The position numbers and the translations under genes were made by a program. A stretch of DNA of 10,646 bases, from IMG/VR virus record IMGVR_UViG_2681813271_000004, one strand, 5' to 3'. Of the stretch, positions 355-10,646 are shown one piece after another (the stretch's first letter is position 1; each line of letters starts with the position of its first letter). The notes beneath the pieces were generated by a model. It searched no databases and had not been told where the DNA came from. It saw only the letters and a program-made list of their open reading frames with translations. Source of the stretch: a virus (lineage: Duplodnaviria > Heunggongvirae > Uroviricota > Caudoviricetes).

Positions 355-1518
355 TCACTCATCATCTTCTGTTTCGTACTCCACATCAGAAAGCCTTACC
401 TCAAGCTCCAAGGACGTCGTGAAGCCGCTATTATTGAGACAATGTGTCACCTTAGTGATGGTCCAGTCCTGCTCGTCTATGACGCGCTTAAAGCCTGACA
501 CTTTAACCGGTGTTTCCGTGTAAATATCTGCACGACCGGTAGCCAGGCTGATGGAGAACTCCGCTACACCCCGTTGCAGTTTATCCCACTTCGCCTGAGC
601 GGCGCGCATGGCCTGCGCTTTTGTGGCATATACCGTGGTCAGGGCAAAAACGTTGTCAGCTTCACCGGCCATGTATTCACCTTCGCGCGCTTCCGGTACT
701 TTTGGCGCTTTCTTCTGCGTGACCGGTTTCGCTTTCGGGTGCTCCAGTGCGCGCAGGTGTTTTTCTTTCTTTTTGCGTTTCAGTTTTACCTTCTGCTTTT
801 GCGGCTTCGGGTCTTTGGTGTGTAACCACTTTGCCGTTACGCCGGTGTAAGCTCCACGGTCAGCAATCGCAAAATGATGACGGTCGCCGTCGCTGCGGGT
901 GATGGTAATCTGCGGGATTTTTTTACCGCTGGCCGTCACCCCCTGCCCCGCTTTGAGAAACAGCAGTTTTCCCATTTTTACCGACACCTCGCCGCCGTTG
1001 CGTTCAGCAAGACGGGTCAGGAATTTCGCATCAGACTCCTGCGACTGGTCGATGTGTGGAATTTTTATTCCGGCCAGTGACGGAGCGACACTGGCTTCCA
1101 GCCTGTTACGGGAGGCTATCGCCTCAACAATCGCACCGAGCGTAATGTCATGCCATGAGCCTTCACGGCGGGAATTGAGCGTCCCGCGAAAATCTGCACT
1201 CCGGGCGCGGATGGTGACCACATCCGGCGCGCCCCGGTGTTCAACCTCATCAACGGTAAATTTCCCTTTGCATACCAGGGCAAAACCTTTCCAGCCGATA
1301 TACACCGTCAGGACAGCGCCACGAACCGGCAGCCCGACCTGCCCGTCGGCATCGTTCAGTTCAATATCAAGCTGGTCAGCCTCAAAGCCCCGGTTATCCG
1401 TCAGGGTCATGCTCATCAGACGGTCGCTGATATTGCCGGTAATATCCCTGCTGTCGAGCATCAGCATGTAATCCGGCGTCAGCGTACTGCCTGCATCAAA
1501 TGTCAGCGCATCCAGCAT
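355..1518 (-). CDS. D: P2 gpD-like tail protein (late control gene D family), 387 aa
   Basis: 387-aa ORF at the expected position between U and ogr in the P2 FI-FII-E-T-U-D order. Its ATG overlaps the U stop codon (TAATG), indicating translational coupling. Contains an internal Lys-rich segment. Confidence 0.88.
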   Translation of the reverse strand: MLDALTFDAGSTLTPDYMLMLDSRDITGNISDRLMSMTLTDNRGFEADQLDIELNDADGQVGLPVRGAVLTVYIGWKGFALVCKGKFTVDEVEHRGAPDVVTIRARSADFRGTLNSRREGSWHDITLGAIVEAIASRNRLEASVAPSLAGIKIPHIDQSQESDAKFLTRLAERNGGEVSVKMGKLLFLKAGQGVTASGKKIPQITITRSDGDRHHFAIADRGAYTGVTAKWLHTKDPKPQKQKVKLKRKKKEKHLRALEHPKAKPVTQKKAPKVPEAREGEYMAGEADNVFALTTVYATKAQAMRAAQAKWDKLQRGVAEFSISLATGRADIYTETPVKVSGFKRVIDEQDWTITKVTHCLNNSGFTTSLELEVRLSDVEYETEDDE

Positions 1519-1997
1519 TATCCCGCCCCCGTCATACCCGTGAATTTAGTCGCCATACTGCCAGCCTTACCGATGAGCGATTCCGCCTGTTTACCGATAT
1601 CGCCATAAAGCGCGGCCAGTGACTCATCAACGCGGGTGAGCGACAGCGTAAAATCAATTTTCCGTGGTGTGCCGTCTGCAAAGAAAATACTCCCTGTTTC
1701 ACTCACCTTGCTGATGACATACATGCCGTAAATCATGCCGGTGCCATCCAGCAACGGCCACGCCCGGCCTTCCTCTGCCATCAGTCTGAGCGTGGTCATC
1801 GTCAGCTTTCCGCCAGTCAGTTCGGGATAAAGCACACCGGCAAGTGTGATGTTCTCCTCACCTACACCGAGAAACTGATAGGCATCCCGTTTACCGATAC
1901 GGGAATTTGACGGCCAGCGATAATCTGATTCACGCTGCATGGTCTGGTGTGGCAGCGTCTGGCGCATAAAAACAAACATACCTAACGCGAGCATCAT
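1518..1997 (-). CDS. U: P2 gpU-like tail protein, 159 aa
   Basis: 159-aa ORF immediately downstream of the tape measure gene (14-nt gap) and overlapping the D start. Size and position match P2 gpU. Confidence 0.85.
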   Translation of the reverse strand: MMLALGMFVFMRQTLPHQTMQRESDYRWPSNSRIGKRDAYQFLGVGEENITLAGVLYPELTGGKLTMTTLRLMAEEGRAWPLLDGTGMIYGMYVISKVSETGSIFFADGTPRKIDFTLSLTRVDESLAALYGDIGKQAESLIGKAGSMATKFTGMTGAG

Positions 1998-2011
1998 TTT
2001 TCGTCACCTCC

Positions 2012-4459
2012 TTAACCGTCATGCATCATGCTGGCACGGGCGCGCGCACGTTTATCCCGCTCGTATTTTTCGAGCGCATCCTGTAACTGGCGGTCAAGCT
2101 GTGTCCCCGGTGCAGTACCACCCGTCAGGCTGATGTGATATTCGTTTTTACTCTGGTCCACATAAGAGCGGCCAGCCGGTGCCGTGACCGGCTGATAAGC
2201 CTGATAGCCTGCATAAGAGCTGGTCGCCGGAATATAACCACCGGTGCCATACGTGGCGGCATGAGTTCTGGCGGCGGTCTGGTCAAGTGTGTCTGACTCT
2301 TTGTTGATGACCCCGAGCTTTTCCAGTACCCAGTCAATGCCGCTGCGCAATTTGTTGAACGCATTAAGCGGCAGCATCAGCGCGTCAGCCAGTGCCTGCC
2401 CGAACATGACGCCCGTGTCACGGCAACGGTTCAGGGTGTCCTGGGTGGCTTTGACCGGGGCAATCAGGTTTTTAAACCACTGCCACGCAGCCTGTAACTT
2501 TTCGCCCAGCCAGTCAAACACCGGTTTCAGTGGCGTGAACAGCTCCCCCACCGGCGCAAATGCCGCTTTCAGCCCTTCAACCACACCGCCAAAGAATGCG
2601 CTGACAGGCTCCCAGTATTTACGGATAAGCAACGCCCCGGCGACAATGGCGGCCACCACAGCCACAACCGGCCAGCTAATCGCCCCGATGGCCGTCATAA
2701 CGGCACTACCAACCGTCGTGAAGATTGCCCCCATTGCGCCTGCTGCCGCGATGATGGCATTGATGCCGGTGATAACCGGCCAGGCTACAAGACCAATTGC
2801 ACCGATGATGCCAGTCAGCGCCAGCGCGCCACCGGCAATGAGGCCAATGGTTGACGCCAGTGATTTGTTTTTCTGTACCCAGCCGTCGAGTTTTAACACA
2901 TACTTTGTGGCCGTCTGCGTGAGCTTACGTAGCGCGCCTTCCTGCTGGTCAAACAGGTCTGTCCCCACCGCCTCATAAGCGGACTGAAACTCCTTAAAGT
3001 CACCGCCGAGGTTGTCCTGCATGATATTTACCAGCTCTGCGGTCTTCCCGTCTGAGGCTTTAAACGCAGCGGTCAGTTTGTCCAGCTTTCCGGTTGACGC
3101 GGCAGTCATCAGCACAGCGGCGGCTGAGCTGGCCTCCTCCCCGAAAATGGTTTTCATGTATTCGGCCTGCTGGGCAGTACCGAGCCGGTTTTTCTCAAAG
3201 CTGGCCTGCATTTCTTTCAGAATGGTAAATACTGGTCGGGTGTTTCCCTTACTGTCTGAGGTTTTCACGCCAAGCTCTTTGAGTGCATCCCATGCTTTTC
3301 CAGTCGGTGCCTGCAGGCGACTTAACACGGCACGGCTTCCCGTCCCCGCCATTGAGCCTGTGATTTTTGCATCATGCAGCGCCCCGACCATTGCGGCGGT
3401 TTCTTCAATGCTGACACCGGCATTTTTTGCCACTGGTGCGGCATAGGTCAGCGCATCGCTCATGCCGTCAAAATCAGCGGCGGTTTTGTTCATCGTCATG
3501 GAGAGAACATCCCCGATATGAGCGACCTTATCGTTTGAAAGCTGAAAGGCGGATTTCATCCCCATCAGCAGGGCGGCGTTTTCTTCCATTGTGCGGCGGT
3601 TCGCCAGCGCCATATTCAGCGTGACCGGCGTTGCCGCCTGAATGGCATCAACATCCCCACCCGCTTTCGCAATGATAATCTGTGCACCGGCCGCATCATC
3701 CGCTGAGGCGGCGGTGTTGTCACCGAGCTGGCGCGCCTGCTTGCGGAGTGCAGCCATTTCGGCGGAGTCTTTTGCCACACCGAGCACAGCCTGCAATTCT
3801 GAGTTTTTCTGCGCAAACTCATAACCTGGCATCAGCAGCTTAACTCCGGCTATCGTTCCCGCAGCAGCAATCCCCACACCGGCAGCGCCCACTGAGGCCA
3901 TATTTCCGGCCAGTTCCTTTCCGGCCTGATAACGCTGTTTGACTGCGTTAAGTTTTGCCTGTTGCGCACTGACACGCGCCAGCGCGTCACGCTGCCGGTT
4001 AAGCTGGGCGGTGGTTTCACTGATACGGTTTTTCAGTCCCTGCTCATCATGTGCAAGATTGCGGGTATTAATTCCCACAGCGGCCAGTTCCCGCTGCTGG
4101 CGTTTAACGGAATCTGTCAGGCGGTTATATTTCGCCTGTAAGTCCTCCGCCGCACGCTTTGCGGATTCCAGCACTTTCGCCTGAGCACGGGTCGGGCGTT
4201 CGGTGTTTTTAAACTGTGTGGCAAGGGCTTCGGCCTCCTGCCGTGCCTTTTCAAGTGCATGACCAGTCACGGCGAGCTGTGCACTGGTCTTGCGGAATCC
4301 CTCAATACGGGATGCGTGACCGTTCAGCTCGCGCAGTGATTTTTGTGTTTCCCGGATATCCCCCGACAGCAACTTACTCGCTCTGCGGATGGATTTAAAC
4401 GGGCGGGACGCCTGGTCAACAGCCCTGAGCAATACCTGTAATTTTACATTGTTACTCAT
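2012..4459 (-). CDS. T: Tail tape measure protein (P2 gpT-like), 815 aa
   Basis: 815-aa ORF with an N-terminal coiled-coil-like, Ala/Gln/Arg-rich region followed by Gly/Ala-rich hydrophobic segments (IAGGALALTGIIGAIGLVAWPVITG...), typical of tape measure proteins. Start ATG at 4457-4459 overlaps the end of the E+E' frame. Confidence 0.9.
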   Translation of the reverse strand: MSNNVKLQVLLRAVDQASRPFKSIRRASKLLSGDIRETQKSLRELNGHASRIEGFRKTSAQLAVTGHALEKARQEAEALATQFKNTERPTRAQAKVLESAKRAAEDLQAKYNRLTDSVKRQQRELAAVGINTRNLAHDEQGLKNRISETTAQLNRQRDALARVSAQQAKLNAVKQRYQAGKELAGNMASVGAAGVGIAAAGTIAGVKLLMPGYEFAQKNSELQAVLGVAKDSAEMAALRKQARQLGDNTAASADDAAGAQIIIAKAGGDVDAIQAATPVTLNMALANRRTMEENAALLMGMKSAFQLSNDKVAHIGDVLSMTMNKTAADFDGMSDALTYAAPVAKNAGVSIEETAAMVGALHDAKITGSMAGTGSRAVLSRLQAPTGKAWDALKELGVKTSDSKGNTRPVFTILKEMQASFEKNRLGTAQQAEYMKTIFGEEASSAAAVLMTAASTGKLDKLTAAFKASDGKTAELVNIMQDNLGGDFKEFQSAYEAVGTDLFDQQEGALRKLTQTATKYVLKLDGWVQKNKSLASTIGLIAGGALALTGIIGAIGLVAWPVITGINAIIAAAGAMGAIFTTVGSAVMTAIGAISWPVVAVVAAIVAGALLIRKYWEPVSAFFGGVVEGLKAAFAPVGELFTPLKPVFDWLGEKLQAAWQWFKNLIAPVKATQDTLNRCRDTGVMFGQALADALMLPLNAFNKLRSGIDWVLEKLGVINKESDTLDQTAARTHAATYGTGGYIPATSSYAGYQAYQPVTAPAGRSYVDQSKNEYHISLTGGTAPGTQLDRQLQDALEKYERDKRARARASMMHDG

Positions 4460-4879
4460 TCGTGTTTCCGCTTCGCCTGAGCGCCTTTTCGCGCCATGTG
4501 ATGAGTTCGGTCAGGCTCATGGGATACAGTTCTGATGGCGGCCAGTGAAATATCACTGCCACATCCGCCATCAGGTCATCGACCGACAGATTTTTCGGAA
4601 GCGTCACTGCACCGAGTTCGGCGACAAAAAACCGACCACCTTACCGGCCAGCGCCACAAGGTCAGGCAGTTCCAGCGCGGCGACTTCCTGCTCGGTCAGC
4701 ATCGGTGCCGTCATGCGCGGCAGCACCTTAATCAGTGCATCGACTTCTGAGTTTGCGACCGCAGCCAGACTGACACCGCGCAGCGTCCCCGCACTGGGTT
4801 TCATCAGCGTGACCTGTTCGATAACCTGCTCACCACGCTTGACCGGATTGTCCAGGGTAATCACATTTTCTTTGTTCAT
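4452..4879 (-). CDS. E+E': Tail assembly chaperone E+E' fusion made by a programmed -1 ribosomal frameshift (predicted 142 aa)
   Basis: Slippery site T TTT TTG on the minus strand (plus 4625-4631). Hand translation of the -1 frame from that point gives VAELGAVTLPKNLSVDDLMADVAVIFHWPPSELYPMSLTELITWREKALRRSGNTNE, then TAA at plus 4452-4454. Total is 85 + 57 = 142 aa, and the end overlaps the T start, as in P2 E/E+E'. Confidence 0.72.
4604..4879 (-). CDS. E: Tail assembly chaperone gpE (91 aa, unshifted product)
   Basis: 91-aa ORF between FII and T ending ...VVGFLSPNSVQ. The GGT TTT TTG codons near its 3' end form the slippery heptamer T TTT TTG. Confidence 0.85.
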   Translation of the reverse strand: MNKENVITLDNPVKRGEQVIEQVTLMKPSAGTLRGVSLAAVANSEVDALIKVLPRMTAPMLTEQEVAALELPDLVALAGKVVGFLSPNSVQ

Positions 4880-4935
4880 GGTTTTCTCACTTCTGAATCG
4901 GGGTTAACCGGTCAGCCAGGCTGACCGGATGAAAA

Positions 4936-5454
4936 TTACAGGCCGATATTGCGGCGGTGTTGCTCCAGCCGGTCGACGCCGTTCACCTTCTCAATCATGT
5001 TGATGGTGTCGATTTCGACCAGCTCCTTACCGTCCATCGTCAGCCGGAAATAGGTGCAGACCACGGAGATTTTCGACTCGGTGTCTTCTCCCTGTTTACC
5101 CTCGCCGGTGTCGATTTCTTTCTGACGGCCACGCATGACCACCTCTACGGCCACCGTTTCGCCGGTATCGTCACGCTGGTAAGAGCCTGCAAAACGAATC
5201 GGCACGGCATCCACACCGGTTGCGGCGTAAAGCTCCCAGATAACCGAATCCGGGAAGCCCCCGAGCGACCACTCCATTGACAGCGCATCGTCATCAAGGC
5301 CGAGGTCTACCGGTGCGCTTCCGTTCATCCCCGCACCGCGATAGTTTTCGAGTTTACGGGTCAGTTTTGGCAGCGTGACGGACTTTGCAACGCCCTGATA
5401 GCTGTAGCCGTTCAGAAAGACGTTCATTAACTTGAGTTTGCGCGGCATTGCCAT
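4936..5454 (-). CDS. FII: Major tail tube protein (P2 gpFII-like), 172 aa
   Basis: 172-aa ORF directly downstream of the sheath gene. Length and position match P2 FII. Stop TAA at 4936-4938. Confidence 0.9.
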   Translation of the reverse strand: MAMPRKLKLMNVFLNGYSYQGVAKSVTLPKLTRKLENYRGAGMNGSAPVDLGLDDDALSMEWSLGGFPDSVIWELYAATGVDAVPIRFAGSYQRDDTGETVAVEVVMRGRQKEIDTGEGKQGEDTESKISVVCTYFRLTMDGKELVEIDTINMIEKVNGVDRLEQHRRNIGL

Positions 5455-5466
5455 CGGTCAGGCTCC

Positions 5467-6657
5467 TTAATTGCTGTTAACCGAGGTGACCAGATTTGCC
5501 AGGTATTTATCGGTAATACGCTGGCGCAGGGTCAGGTTTTCAAGAGGAGGCACCGGGGTATAGTCGTAGTCGATATACAGTTTTCCGGCCTTGAGGGTTT
5601 CCGCATCGTTGGATTCTTCGCTGAACCAGCAGGTCGCATCCACGATATAGCCGTTTGTTTTCAGCTCACGGAATTTGGCATTGATGCCGTCAACGATGTC
5701 GCGAATCAGCGTTGCGGTGATGGGCTTGTCCACCGCCCACATGTGCGCCTCAGCCATCGTGTCGGCCAGCACCTGCGCGGTGCGGGTGTAGTTTTCAAAG
5801 AGGAACAGCGGGTCATCAGAGCAGGTACGGTTACCCCAGAAGCGGAAACCGTCACGGCGAATCAGCGTTGTGACGCCTGACTCGTTAAGCAGGTCAGCAT
5901 CGGTGCCGGACTCCTGCAAATCCCAGAATACGGACGCGCTGATGCCGGTAACACCGTTCACCCCGACGTTGGACAGCGTTTTATGCCAGCCCTGCTCCTG
6001 GTCGATTTTAGCGCGCAGACCCAGCGCACGGGCGGTGGCATACGCGGTGGCGGTGGTACTGGCGACCGTATCCCATGCGAGGAAATCCGGCCAGATGACC
6101 ATCAGCTCACGCTGGCTGAAATTCTGACGGTAGGCTTTCACCTCGGAAACGGTCTTACAGCCCCATGCGCTGATATACCCGAAAGCGCGCAGCTTCTGAC
6201 AGACTGATGCCAGTGCAACAGCCACCTCTTTGGTGTCCAGTCCCGGCACGCCGAGAATACGCGGTTTAACACCGGTTACCGACTCCGCCGCCAGCAGGGC
6301 TTTCAGTCCGGTGTACTGACCGTTTTCGTCGGTGGTGCCGATGATATTGGAAACGGTCTGCGCGAGTTTCGTTTCCTCGTCGTCGCCGGTGCCGTCTTCC
6401 ACACGCACGACAACGGTGACCGGTTTTGACTGGTCGGCGATGGCCTGCAACGATGCCGCCAGCGTGCCTTTTTTACCGGCCTTTGCAATTGCGCTCTGCA
6501 CATTGGTAATCAGCACCGGTTTATTGAGGGGGAAGGTTTCCGCATCCGCATCGCTGGCCGTGCAGACCATGCCGACAATGGCAGTGGATACGGTGGAAAT
6601 GACGCGGGTGCCGTCGTTAATCTCCAGCACCTGCACGCCGTGATGATAGTCACTCAT
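5467..6657 (-). CDS. FI: Major tail sheath protein (P2 gpFI-like), 396 aa
   Basis: 396-aa ORF and first gene of the F operon. GGAG RBS 8 nt upstream of ATG (plus 6655-6657). Length and position match P2 FI. Confidence 0.9.
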   Translation of the reverse strand: MSDYHHGVQVLEINDGTRVISTVSTAIVGMVCTASDADAETFPLNKPVLITNVQSAIAKAGKKGTLAASLQAIADQSKPVTVVVRVEDGTGDDEETKLAQTVSNIIGTTDENGQYTGLKALLAAESVTGVKPRILGVPGLDTKEVAVALASVCQKLRAFGYISAWGCKTVSEVKAYRQNFSQRELMVIWPDFLAWDTVASTTATAYATARALGLRAKIDQEQGWHKTLSNVGVNGVTGISASVFWDLQESGTDADLLNESGVTTLIRRDGFRFWGNRTCSDDPLFLFENYTRTAQVLADTMAEAHMWAVDKPITATLIRDIVDGINAKFRELKTNGYIVDATCWFSEESNDAETLKAGKLYIDYDYTPVPPLENLTLRQRITDKYLANLVTSVNSN

Positions 6658-6752
6658 CCGTTTAACTCCGTGGTTAATGGGTGCAACTATTTTCTGTTGG
6701 GCAGTGCATGAGACGCTATTTGACCTGGCTGGTCAGTGGATGAAACAACAGA

Positions 6753-6781
6753 TAAAGAAAATGCGGGCAATTCGCCCGCAT
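6753..6781 (-). terminator. Rho-independent terminator-like hairpin on the minus strand (8-bp GC-rich stem, 5-nt loop, then TTTTCTTT)
   Basis: Plus 6761-6768 atgcgggc and 6774-6781 gcccgcat are perfect reverse complements. On the minus strand the hairpin is followed by TTTTCTTTATC (plus 6750-6760). Confidence 0.5.
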
Positions 6782-6798
6782 GTCCTGATTTGTACACA
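6781..6798 (-). promoter_or_regulatory. TGT-N12-ACA dyad, candidate Ogr-dependent late promoter element for the F operon (P_F)
   Basis: tgtcctgatttgtacaca matches the TGT-N12-ACA consensus of P2/186/P4 late promoters (dyad centred near -55). It is the only such match in the FI upstream region. The implied TSS near 6734 would give a roughly 77-nt leader. Confidence 0.4.
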
Positions 6799-6996
6799 CT
6801 CATTTTCCGACTGACAGTTTACATAGCCCAAACGCTATCAAATCTGACAGCCTGCTATGAGCGAAAAGCGTTAAATCTCACGATATCTGCTACCGGGAAA
6901 AATTTCGATTATCTTCGATGGGAACTTTGATAATGTAGTAAATGCCATTTTCAGCGATCACTTTTCAAGCGTGTGTAAATGATTAATGTTAAAAAA

Positions 6997-7026
6997 TTGA
7001 CTTCACTGAAATAAGGTTGCTAGTAT
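6997..7026 (+). promoter_or_regulatory. Candidate sigma70 promoter for the cargo gene (TTGACT - 18 nt - TAGTAT)
   Basis: -35-like TTGACT at 6997-7002 and -10-like TAGTAT at 7021-7026, in AT-rich DNA about 40 nt upstream of the cargo ATG. AAGGAA RBS at 7058-7063. Confidence 0.3.
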
Positions 7027-7067
7027 TTTTGGAGCAACCATTAATGTTTTTTATTTAAGGAATGTAA

Positions 7068-8328
7068 ATGACATACGCACTGATTGATAATTCAACTCTA
7101 ACTGCAGTCCAAAGAATCGAGGGGAAAGTAAAAACAAGATCGAAGGACTCAGTAGATACAGACATAATAGCATTTGAGAACTATATACAGTCTATTTTGT
7201 TCTATGATCACGTTATCGCGGTTGATGATTATATTCCAGAGTACCGTGGGAGTAGGATTTCAAGTTTCAGAGAGATATTATTTCTTGATAAAGCACAATA
7301 TGGGTTGGATGAAATTGAAAGTGAAGCAAAAAAAATATCTGATGCATTGAAACCTAAAATTCGTGGTGGAACATTTGTTAATGACGATTTTAAAAAACTA
7401 ATTGAACTTCTTCAGACACATATCATATGTACATGGGACATTAGTTCAAGTGTTTATCATCTAACACTGAAGAACTTATCTGATGGAGGTAAGGAGTTTG
7501 AAAAATATGGTAACATTGCTGCTGCCATTTTTTCAGAACTGCGTGATGCTGCTGAGTCTGGTAATAGAACAAATGGCGATGTTGAACTTCTCGATCGATT
7601 TGGCAACCCTATTCGCAAGGGGTACAAAGTTCCCGGAGCAAAATGGGGGGATGGCACATCTGCTGGTGAAGCATCAGATGCAATCAAAGCATTCGTGGCT
7701 TCGCTTGTATGGCTGGCTAATCGGGCAGTATTTTATTCTCTCACAGCTAAGTACCTTCAAGCAGATACTTTTTTATATCCATTACGTCAGGCGTATCAAC
7801 AGACATATTTAAGCCAAAACTGTCAGTATGGTTTTGACTATGCTAAACATATTGTAGAAAACTTTTCCACTTCGTTAAGTCATGATCTCATTGATATTCA
7901 TTCTGGTGGTAAAGCTGTAGCAACAGCAACTTCGCTTCCTTTATTTTCGGCATGGCTCGCAAAAGAAACTGGTGATCCAAGTTGTATTGTTGAAGCTGCT
8001 TATAACATAAGGGACAACAACGAATTTGTAAGGGCCCGTGAGAAAATGCGAGAAATAAAGCGCTTGTTTGATGAAAATGAATTGCCTCAAGCTAATAAGT
8101 CAGTAAGAGCATTGCTTACTGAAGTATCGAAAGAATCAGATTATATTCGAACTAAGTATGGGCTCAAGACTAGACAAGGTGTACCTGTAACTAAGCTTGT
8201 ACATGTATACAATACTGTTGCGGCTATTAATTCCCTTCCGAAACTACCGACCTTTAATTTTAAAGTTAAAGTTCCTGATTTCTTATATGATCTTAAAAAA
8301 CCCAAGGGGTTTCGTGCTCTCTATCGAA
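7068..8328 (+). CDS. Hypothetical protein, at least 420 aa, 3' end lost in the N-gap. Cargo gene at the P2 Z/fun-equivalent hotspot and candidate anti-phage defense / superinfection-exclusion protein of unrecognised family.
   Basis: Long uninterrupted ORF on the strand opposite all phage late genes, in DNA visibly more AT-rich than the flanking tail genes. ATG at 7068 with an upstream AAGGAA. I see no Walker A, HEPN or other canonical motif. The ORF-track extension to 8630 is an artefact of translating N as X. Confidence 0.65.
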
Positions 8329-8585
8329 NNNNNNNNNNNNNNNNNNNNNNNNNNNNNNNNNNNNNNNNNNNNNNNNNNNNNNNNNNNNNNNNNNNNNNNN
8401 NNNNNNNNNNNNNNNNNNNNNNNNNNNNNNNNNNNNNNNNNNNNNNNNNNNNNNNNNNNNNNNNNNNNNNNNNNNNNNNNNNNNNNNNNNNNNNNNNNNN
8501 NNNNNNNNNNNNNNNNNNNNNNNNNNNNNNNNNNNNNNNNNNNNNNNNNNNNNNNNNNNNNNNNNNNNNNNNNNNNNNNNNNNNN
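8329..8585. other. Run of 257 N (assembly gap or masked sequence) inside the cargo island
   Basis: Contiguous n characters from 8329 to 8585. Confidence 0.99.
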
Positions 8586-8627
8586 TGGCACAGAGCGGAC
8601 TCTCAGATTAGGCTTTACTCTGTGCCA
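8586..8627. terminator. 10-bp perfect inverted repeat (tggcacagag / ctctgtgcca, 22-nt loop) between the convergent cargo gene and tfa. Possible terminator for the H-G transcript or a boundary element.
   Basis: Plus 8586-8595 and 8618-8627 are exact reverse complements. The flank that would carry a T-tract on the minus strand is inside the N-gap. No T-tract follows on the plus strand. Confidence 0.25.
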
Positions 8628-8661
8628 TAGATATGTAAGCTCACACCAGAGCTCATACAAC

Positions 8662-9189
8662 TTATTGCGGCATTTCCGGCCATTCAGGATTTGCAGGATC
8701 CACACGACTGACCAGAACACTGTAGCGTTCCCATGCCTCCAGTCGACTGCGCTCCTCATCTGTTGCCATATTCAGCCTGACAGCGCGCTCCAGCGGCAAA
8801 ATCACGGATTCAGCATCTGCAAGAAGTCTGGCTTTCCGATTTTCTGCCTGCTGCTGCAATTCCTCTGCCGTATAAATTCGTTTAATCACTGTACAGTCCT
8901 TAAACATCCAGTTCCCTGAAATGTCCGCCCGTCGGTTAGCAGTAATATCCGGCACTTCAACAACACTTAATCCATCCGGTCTGATAGCTGTCACATCCTT
9001 TTCCACATAGCGGATAATATTATCTTTGTCGTACGCTATTTTTATCGTGTCATCAGCAAAATACTTTTGTTCTTCGTACCAGTTCTTACCATCTTCTGAA
9101 AAAAACCAGACAACATCAAAGTCCTTTGTCAATTGATATTGTTCAACCGTTTTTGGATTACCTGCCGTTATATTTATCAAATGCTGCAT
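8662..9189 (-). CDS. tfa: Tail fiber assembly protein (Tfa / P2 gpG-equivalent chaperone), 175 aa
   Basis: 175-aa ORF starting 3 nt after the tail fiber stop. The C-terminal segment ...[45 protein letters not shown] is characteristic of the lambda/Mu/e14-type tail fiber assembly chaperone family. Confidence 0.88.
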
Positions 9190-9192
9190 AAA

Positions 9193-10646
9193 TTATACCT
9201 GTGCCACGTTATACCAAGTCCCGTTAATGTATTTCTGCACCGGTCTGTAATATACGCCACCAATGTTATCGGCAGAGTTTGAGCCGGTATCCTGAACAAT
9301 AATGCCGGAATATACACACCCGGACGGTGCCTGATGTGTCCATGTCATACCATTGTTCGCAGGTTTGTATGTGGCAGCACCACCAAGCCGGATATCCCGG
9401 ACATAGCGTGAATCAAAGTTGCCATAGTTAGATGGTGATACCTGCCCGTTAACAGCAAAAGTGATGCTGTTATCTGTATTTCTCTGACTGTAAAAATGCC
9501 AGCCTGCATCATCACCTAATTCAGCCACCACAGGACGACTTGAGTTTCCCCACAAATTGAATGCGGCTTCCTTCGTGGATGTATTGCTGCTGCTGACCGT
9601 GAACTTTTTCCCGCTACCGGCACGTACTTTGGTACTTGAGACAATATCACCTGTAACACTCAGGCCATGCCCCATTGACACTCCGCCATTGGCGTTATTG
9701 ATAGTCAGCGGTCTTAAGCCGTTCCATGTCCCAAATTTATCGCCAGAGGCCGTCAGCATTAAATATGTGCTGCCGCCATCATTCCTGATAAAGAATCCAT
9801 AATTGCCATAAGCAATGCGCAGACCATTAGCACTGAGTGATGTAATTTCACCTCTTGAACGGAGACCATAAGCGGAGCTGAGTGATAATTCTTCCTGAGC
9901 GTCATTGTTTCCTGTCGCCCAGCGAATTACCCCGCCCTGAACTGTTTCATGCCAGATAGTATCTCCTTCTCCACCACGAAACTTTCTGAGATATTTTTTG
10001 CCGCCTCTGGTGCCTGAACATAAGGCCGTAGACATATAGGCATTCTGGCTTCCGCCATCCTGATTAATCGTTCCGGTCATTGAGTCGCCCTGACGATTCC
10101 AGTCACGACGCCAGCCGGGGGAGTAGCCGTCCCCATGATTTATGTAAGTGAATTGCGCGCTGGTTGTACCGCCACCGCTTGATGTTGTTGGCGTGGTCAC
10201 TCGGATAGTGATTGCAGATTTAGTTCCCATGACCTCGACGACACAACCAGCCAGGTGGATATCACCACATCCGGTATCCGTAATGATTTTGTTATTTGCA
10301 TATGACCAGGAGCCTTTGCACATCCAGTACGGATGATTAAATGCACCACGGGAATCCAGCCATTCAATAAACTGAGCGGTTGTCCAGTTTCCGGCTTCAG
10401 TGCTCAAAGCGCCGCTATAAGCACGACAGGCACCGATATTTTTCGTGAAGGTATCCTTTCCCGGAATATCCGCACCGTTCTGATCTTTCTGAAGACGTTT
10501 TTCAGCATTGTCATAGGCAGACTTCACTGCTTTTGGCGTTGCGGCCAGCGTTTCAGAATCGCTGTTGATGGCACTACTTAGCTGGACAAGACCTTTTCGC
10601 GCTGTGGTGGCATCCTGTGCAGTGTATTTCCCGTTAGCAAGGTCAT
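9193..10646 (-). CDS. H: Tail fiber protein (P2 gpH-like), C-terminal about 484 codons; N-terminus lies beyond the right window edge
   Basis: The reading frame stays open from 10646 down to TAA at 9193-9195; the ORF-track start at 10527 is an internal GTG. Hand translation of 10528-10646 gives ...DLANGKYTAQDATTARKGLVQLSSAINSDSETLAATPKAVK, matching the conserved N-proximal region of P2-type tail fibers. It is followed by a Gly/Ser/Thr/Asn-rich distal domain typical of receptor-binding regions. Confidence 0.88.
   Translation of the reverse strand, partial: DLANGKYTAQDATTARKGLVQLSSAINSDSETLAATPKAVKSAYDNAEKRLQKDQNGADIPGKDTFTKNIGACRAYSGALSTEAGNWTTAQFIEWLDSRGAFNHPYWMCKGSWSYANNKIITDTGCGDIHLAGCVVEVMGTKSAITIRVTTPTTSSGGGTTSAQFTYINHGDGYSPGWRRDWNRQGDSMTGTINQDGGSQNAYMSTALCSGTRGGKKYLRKFRGGEGDTIWHETVQGGVIRWATGNNDAQEELSLSSAYGLRSRGEITSLSANGLRIAYGNYGFFIRNDGGSTYLMLTASGDKFGTWNGLRPLTINNANGGVSMGHGLSVTGDIVSSTKVRAGSGKKFTVSSSNTSTKEAAFNLWGNSSRPVVAELGDDAGWHFYSQRNTDNSITFAVNGQVSPSNYGNFDSRYVRDIRLGGAATYKPANNGMTWTHQAPSGCVYSGIIVQDTGSNSADNIGGVYYRPVQKYINGTWYNVAQV

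Follow-up and report, generated by a model that had tools for sequence, protein, structure and literature searches.

The sequence analysed here (the window, 10,646 nt) is a segment of a P2-like (Peduovirus) prophage of E. coli. Its minus strand carries, at positions 355-6657, the tail genes D, U, T, E/E', FII and FI; the start of the tail fibre gene H is at 9193. Between the tail sheath gene FI (5467-6657, minus strand; annotation and a Phage_sheath_1 match) and the tail fibre assembly gene G (8662-9189, minus strand; annotation and a Caudo_TAP match) lies an accessory gene, referred to below as the cargo gene, which is read from the plus strand, opposite to the orientation of the late tail genes. 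Its visible part covers positions 7068-8328 and is interrupted by the only run of N in the window, 257 bases at 8329-8585, which is read as an assembly or scaffold gap. The gap is followed by a hairpin at 8586-8627, for which the initial annotation proved accurate: the stem, formed by 8586-8595 and 8618-8627 (4866-4875 and 4898-4907 in the gap-free locus L001), consists of 10 perfect base pairs and encloses a 22-nt loop.

The interval between G and FI is the Z/fun accessory-gene hotspot of P2-like phages. Its status as a hotspot, for accessory as well as defence genes, is described in two sources (10.1101/2024.10.15.618418; PMC13586616), and in GenBank records AJ512682 and AJ512683 it is annotated as 'Z-region' with flanking inverted repeats. 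The limits of the insert are apparent from the loss of homology on its two sides. Other P2-like phages match only bases 1-205/211 of the query 6660-8328, i.e., the FI-proximal flank, and in 971 other E. coli genomes and 65 phage records the match is likewise limited to this flank of ~205 nt; the left junction between cassette and P2 backbone is located at ~6865-6870. On the right, homology to phage P2 resumes 5-8 nt before the edge of the sequence that corresponds to the gap (L001 ~4856-4863). Consequently, the cassette extends from ~6866 to the end of the gap (6866-8585, plus strand), with a true length of ~1.65 kb. The GC content is 37.7% in the cargo versus 55.6% in the tail genes. The likeness to the Z/fun hotspot thus comprises the same position, the same conserved backbone flanks (the hairpin downstream of G and the ~205 nt by FI) and a foreign, AT-rich insert of the kind that differs between phages. 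The difference lies in the cargo itself, here a 472-aa protein, for which DNA searches, i.e., a comparison at the DNA level, gave no match to the P2 cargo or to the other phage records of the collection. In one of the seven closed carrier genomes, that of E. coli OkiPb01685, the tail fibre assembly gene beside the cargo is annotated as frameshifted (L005 4942-5459), which suggests that this prophage copy is decaying with its cargo gene intact.

From the ATG at 7068 the cargo ORF runs for 1261 nt, i.e., 420 codons and one additional base, without encountering a stop codon before 8329, and it is therefore open at the left edge of the gap, as had been proposed. In the ORF listing the same frame is given as 7068..8630 with 520 aa. 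This length arises because the 257 N keep the frame, (1261+257) mod 3 being 0, and the apparent extension as far as 8630 is spurious, an effect of N being translated as X, in agreement with the initial annotation. With the 196 nt that occupy the place of the gap in related assemblies, described below, (1261+196) mod 3 equals 2, and the TAG at 8628-8630 is therefore not the stop codon of the cargo gene.

The content of the gap is readily apparent from a comparison with 14 independent gap-free assemblies that carry both flanks, namely seven closed E. coli genomes, four further contigs, which are those encoding an identical cargo protein, and three IMG/VR viral contigs, which were found by an exact 31-nt pattern from the left flank, a pattern without a match in the genome_contigs collection. 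The 1669 bases to the left of the gap are 99.5-100% identical to the seven closed chromosomes, and in all seven the 60-nt left and 60-nt right flanks of the gap are separated by 196 nt rather than 257. The same 196 nt stand in place of the gap in 14/14 assemblies, with flanks collinear with the window; twelve copies are identical, and the remaining two have one substitution in common. Furthermore, no mismatch to the window occurs in the contigs IMGVR_UViG_2558860170_000011 and IMGVR_UViG_2671180814_000019 over the 8274+2061 = 10,335 bases that can be compared; both represent the same prophage assembled without a gap. The replacement sequence, ATTTGACTAATG...GCGTCTACTTC, begins with 158 coding nt, including a TAG stop, and ends with 38 non-coding nt. 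It adds 52 codons to the visible ORF, corresponding to residues 421-472 (NLTNDLSTVWSLGEARDILGSKVVIDNHARIYSPKHEEPRFKNSHSPYKSPM), and the TAG, which falls 158 nt into the interval in 14/14 assemblies, would come to lie at 8484-8486 if the count begins at the left gap edge. The true stop codon thus lies within the gap, as anticipated, and the complete gene occupies positions 3409-4827 in L001. The 38 nt that follow the stop, CTTAAGAAAAAGACACGCCCACCTTGTGCGTCTACTTC, lead directly into the TGGCACAGAG...CTCTGTGCCA hairpin at 8586-8627.

These data show that the N run is an ordinary assembly gap, whose flanks are collinear with those of gap-free assemblies and whose length differs from that of the real sequence. 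Its content is most likely the same 196 nt found in the other assemblies of the locus, and the best reading of the additional 61 nt in the N run is a size estimate made by the scaffolder. An alternative is that the gap is truly 257 nt long in this strain and holds the common 196 nt together with a strain-specific insertion of 61 nt, such as a small duplication or a miniature repeat, which could affect the 3'-terminal part of the gene or its 3' UTR. The length of the N run is compatible with such an event, since 257 does not follow a round convention such as 100 and exceeds by 61 the 196 nt seen elsewhere. However, paired-read scaffolders often misjudge gap sizes by tens of bases, the two assemblies that agree with the window at each of the 10,335 comparable bases carry 196 nt, as do all the other members of the comparison set, and an insertion in the coding part would frameshift a family of strongly conserved length and C-terminus. 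A genuine 61-nt insertion is accordingly regarded as improbable. No feature explaining why the assembler broke at this point was found in the 196 nt, which have a GC content of 41% and contain no repeat.

The initial annotation had further envisaged that the gap conceals a second component, in the form of a small partner gene, an IS element or a collapsed repeat. Such an arrangement would have parallels, as many defence systems are built from more than one gene and repeats are a frequent cause of assembly breaks. Once the 158 coding nt are accounted for, however, the interval offers only the 38 non-coding nt between the stop and the 8586-8627 hairpin in 14/14 assemblies, the very arrangement that the initial annotation had named as refuting its proposal, and even if all 61 extra nt were located after the stop, the available space would be ~99 nt (<33 codons). 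Six-frame translation of the 196 nt reveals no ORF other than the tail of the cargo gene itself. The sequence occurs once per genome in seven E. coli genomes and is absent from the other 5,419; being single copy, it is neither an IS element nor a collapsed repeat, and no IS element is annotated in the equivalent interval. The absence of a conserved neighbour gene in eight distant contexts of homologues, discussed below, also argues against a missing partner. The presence of a hidden second component is thus extremely unlikely.

Collectively, these findings are best explained by a draft-assembly gap in an E. coli P2-like prophage that conceals nothing unusual and interrupts a one-gene accessory cassette (moron), a reading to which a probability of roughly 0.9 is assigned. 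Since the content of the gap is already public, the size of the island (~1.65 kb) and its gene content (one gene), both of which had been given as unknown, are known without resequencing. The gap itself, as an assembly artefact whose hidden content is available in public databases, matters little; there is nothing novel in the N run, and the locus adds a further instance of cargo to a hotspot that is already well described.

As regards transcription, a sigma-70-like promoter motif is found on the plus strand at 6997-7026 (L001 3338-3367), composed of TTGACT, an 18-nt spacer and TAGTAT preceded by TG, and thus provided with an extended -10 element. It is located 41 nt upstream of the ATG and constitutes a consensus match only, of a kind that is no commoner in this region than expected from shuffled sequence. 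A ribosome-binding site, AAGGA, is read directly at 7057-7061 on the same strand, 6 nt before the ATG. The sigma-70-like motif would allow expression of the cargo gene in the lysogen.

Concerning termination, the initial annotation had remarked that any T-tract would be invisible. The only T-tract in the gap, TTTTTCTT, is on the minus strand, where it follows a small imperfect hairpin, GACACGCCCACCTTGTGCGTC, of the 38 nt; downstream of the cargo gene, in its own direction of reading, there is none. The position of the T-tract on the minus strand makes the in-gap hairpin terminator-like for transcripts arriving from G and not for the cargo gene. This small hairpin was not called in a pattern scan for terminators. 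Together with TTTTTCTT, it resembles a terminator of the converging H-G tail-fibre transcript. The point at which the P2 backbone resumes likewise falls within these 38 nt, directly ahead of the 8586-8627 hairpin. The latter hairpin is a conserved element of the P2 backbone downstream of G and is not part of the cargo; its counterpart in phage P2 differs only in the loop. A further terminator-like hairpin is located on the minus strand at 6761-6781 (L001 3122-3102), where ATGCGGGCGAATTGCCCGCAT is followed by TTTCTTT and the 9-bp stem includes 6 G-C pairs. Its site is conserved backbone, in the stretch that separates the cassette from FI. As this strong terminator-like hairpin stands beyond the cassette, late transcription from H-G would cross the entire cargo gene in antisense before arriving at the hairpin.

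The region between G and the cargo gene (L001 4815-4945, corresponding in the window to the last ~50 nt of the gap up to 8665) is predicted to fold into two hairpins enclosed by a long-range stem, in which the last cargo codons pair with the sequence just downstream of the G stop codon. This fold is more stable than shuffled sequence, with z-scores of -3.8 for the minus strand and -3.5 for the plus strand. A search of the gap-filled locus for Rfam families and tRNA genes gave no match.

The complete cargo protein comprises 472 aa, with a mass of 53.3 kDa and a pI of 8.6, and is identical to WP_000220361.1, a RefSeq 'hypothetical protein'. Neither a transmembrane helix nor a signal peptide is predicted. 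Its sole profile match is the unannotated phrog_13435, and scans against Pfam, NCBIfam and PADLOC (PADLOC-DB v2) gave no match. When 50 close and 51 divergent relatives were scanned, only scattered sub-threshold matches were obtained, with nothing consistent among them, and the PADLOC matches of the 51 divergent relatives were isolated chance events. One such match, to 2OG-FeII_Oxy_6, covers a 42-residue piece in 13 members; its best E-value of 0.008 is below the cut-off. All of these scattered matches were rejected as chance. A sequence search of the PDB with the family profile returned coiled-coil noise only, Foldseek comparison of the cargo protein with the PDB and BFVD gave nothing at an E-value <=0.001, and no paper was found in a literature search with the cargo accession numbers, locus tags or PHROG number. 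The family is a compact orphan group, without annotation anywhere.

Its members are nevertheless numerous. A word-indexed search retrieves 282 homologues, and most of the 120 matches listed, which range from 100% to 51% identity, are exactly 472 aa long. An exhaustive profile search of 1.84 billion cluster representatives (clusters at 50% identity) yields 326 members, the full-length ones measuring 454-485 aa, and reveals no longer relatives or domain fusions that would hint at a function. At the C-terminus, the final four residues, K-S-P-M, do not vary in 50 relatives with identities of 51-89%, distant members retain K-x-PM, and among relatives with identities as low as 22% the conservation of P471 is still 90% or higher. 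The conserved length and the conserved C-terminal end indicate that the stop inside the gap is ancestral and no peculiarity of a few strains. The part of the protein that is hidden by the gap also includes a tail, Y-x-P-K-x-E...H-S-x-x-K-S-P-M (residues 452-472), that is almost invariant at 51-89% identity, and these residues are predicted to be disordered, with pLDDT values of 31-54. Such a tail could be a conserved peptide motif, for example a degron, a docking site or an autoinhibitory tail.

The family is distributed over Enterobacterales, Vibrio, Acinetobacter, Halomonas, Psychrobacter, Desulfotalea and Citrifermentans at 50-90% identity, a wide spread that suggests frequent horizontal transfer under strong constraint. 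The neighbourhoods of homologues were compared in eight other organisms, including Desulfotalea, Acinetobacter, Citrifermentans, Tenderia, Pectobacterium, Vibrio vulnificus and Serratia, and no neighbour gene is conserved across these eight distant contexts. Since the neighbours have nothing in common, the cargo gene travels alone. In Desulfotalea the homologue adjoins MksBEF genes, and in Pectobacterium (L022-L023) its neighbours are a HEPN-Toprim protein, toxin-antitoxin genes and an SMC/MComp module. In Vibrio vulnificus (L024-L026) it is embedded in a series of small genes on one strand whose arrangement resembles a superintegron cassette array, in Serratia (L028-L029) it is inserted between tra genes of a conjugative element, and one further homologue sits between IS elements. 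These are typical locations of defence cargo, and they point to a defence-type role. In this respect the family behaves as do the single-gene systems of prophages and satellites, which are likewise found in other mobile elements and in defence islands.

Regarding the N-terminal part of the protein, a weak PIN-like fold is suggested by a start that resembles that of PIN domains, with a strand at residues 3-6 ('YALI') followed by the invariant D7 and by N8. In an alignment that includes relatives with as little as 22% identity, D7 and D32 never vary, the conservation of E37, D53 and D54 reaches 90% or more, and that of D124 is restricted to the closer relatives. PIN-domain (VapC-like) ribonucleases, among the closest known systems, carry a quartet of acidic residues clustered at the C-terminal edge of a five-stranded parallel sheet, to which these positions may correspond. 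Neither the cargo protein nor 100 relatives match the Pfam PIN families. Also against such a reading, in hhalign the family and Shigella VapC (its sequence verified as 3TND) are aligned with a probability of 0.3%, i.e., without a match.

Taking into account the hotspot, the contexts of the homologues and the N-terminal residues, the best guess is that the cargo acts on its own in anti-phage defence or superinfection exclusion, through a nuclease effector of divergent PIN-like type, a proposal that is held tentatively, at somewhat under even odds; a single-gene anti-phage role as such is plausible. According to this proposal, the N-terminal alpha/beta PIN-like domain, with D7, D32, E37, D53 and D54, would act as a metal-dependent nuclease effector, and the remaining part, with the conserved KSPM tail at the C-terminus, would sense or regulate. 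A parallel is offered by Rst_DUF4238, a DUF4238 protein from the old/tin hotspot of P2 (PMC9122126), which is alike in being a single gene at a variable P2 locus. It differs in belonging to another family and another hotspot; the present cargo has no PADLOC match, and its anti-phage role is putative.

Not far short of an even chance is given to the different view that the cargo serves a purpose other than defence, i.e., another lysogenic-conversion or selfish function, such as host fitness, virulence, anti-defence, cassette mobility or addiction. Non-defence cargo is known from the hotspots of P2 as well, with cytolethal distending toxin and partition systems as examples (PMC9122126), many kinds of cargo are held by integron arrays and ICE hotspots, and no defence model matches the cargo protein, all of which is consistent with a non-defence function. 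It is more difficult to reconcile with the recurrence of the gene beside MksBEF, HEPN-Toprim, toxin-antitoxin and SMC/MComp genes. Furthermore, Z/fun, the archetype of the hotspot, blocks phage T5. The lack of a signal peptide and of transmembrane segments argues, within the same group of functions, against a secreted virulence factor. In 10.1101/2024.10.15.618418, Z/fun is described together with the defence loci of P2.

Returning to the anti-phage proposal, WP_000220361.1/phrog_13435 may found an undescribed single-gene anti-phage family, present as a solo cassette across P2 prophages, ICEs, integron arrays and defence islands of Gamma- and Deltaproteobacteria, in which a highly divergent PIN-like nuclease would be placed under a novel C-terminal module and the tail hidden by the gap would have a regulatory or sensing role; in this full form the idea is a speculative one, with the odds leaning against it. 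An orphan 472-aa family that is located in a classic anti-phage hotspot and recurs alone in mobile elements is nonetheless a reasonable and cheap candidate for a phage-challenge screen, and as a candidate single-gene defence system it is a lead worth passing on.

A minor observation concerns the left end of the window. Positions 1-29 have no match in the E. coli genomes that carry the prophage, and the IMG/VR contig L021 starts at window position 55. Positions 1-54 hold a perfect 10-bp hairpin, CCAGTCAGTT-GCTT-AACTGACTGG, together with the run GGGGCTATTTTTTT, and this segment may be the prophage end or an att-proximal terminator.
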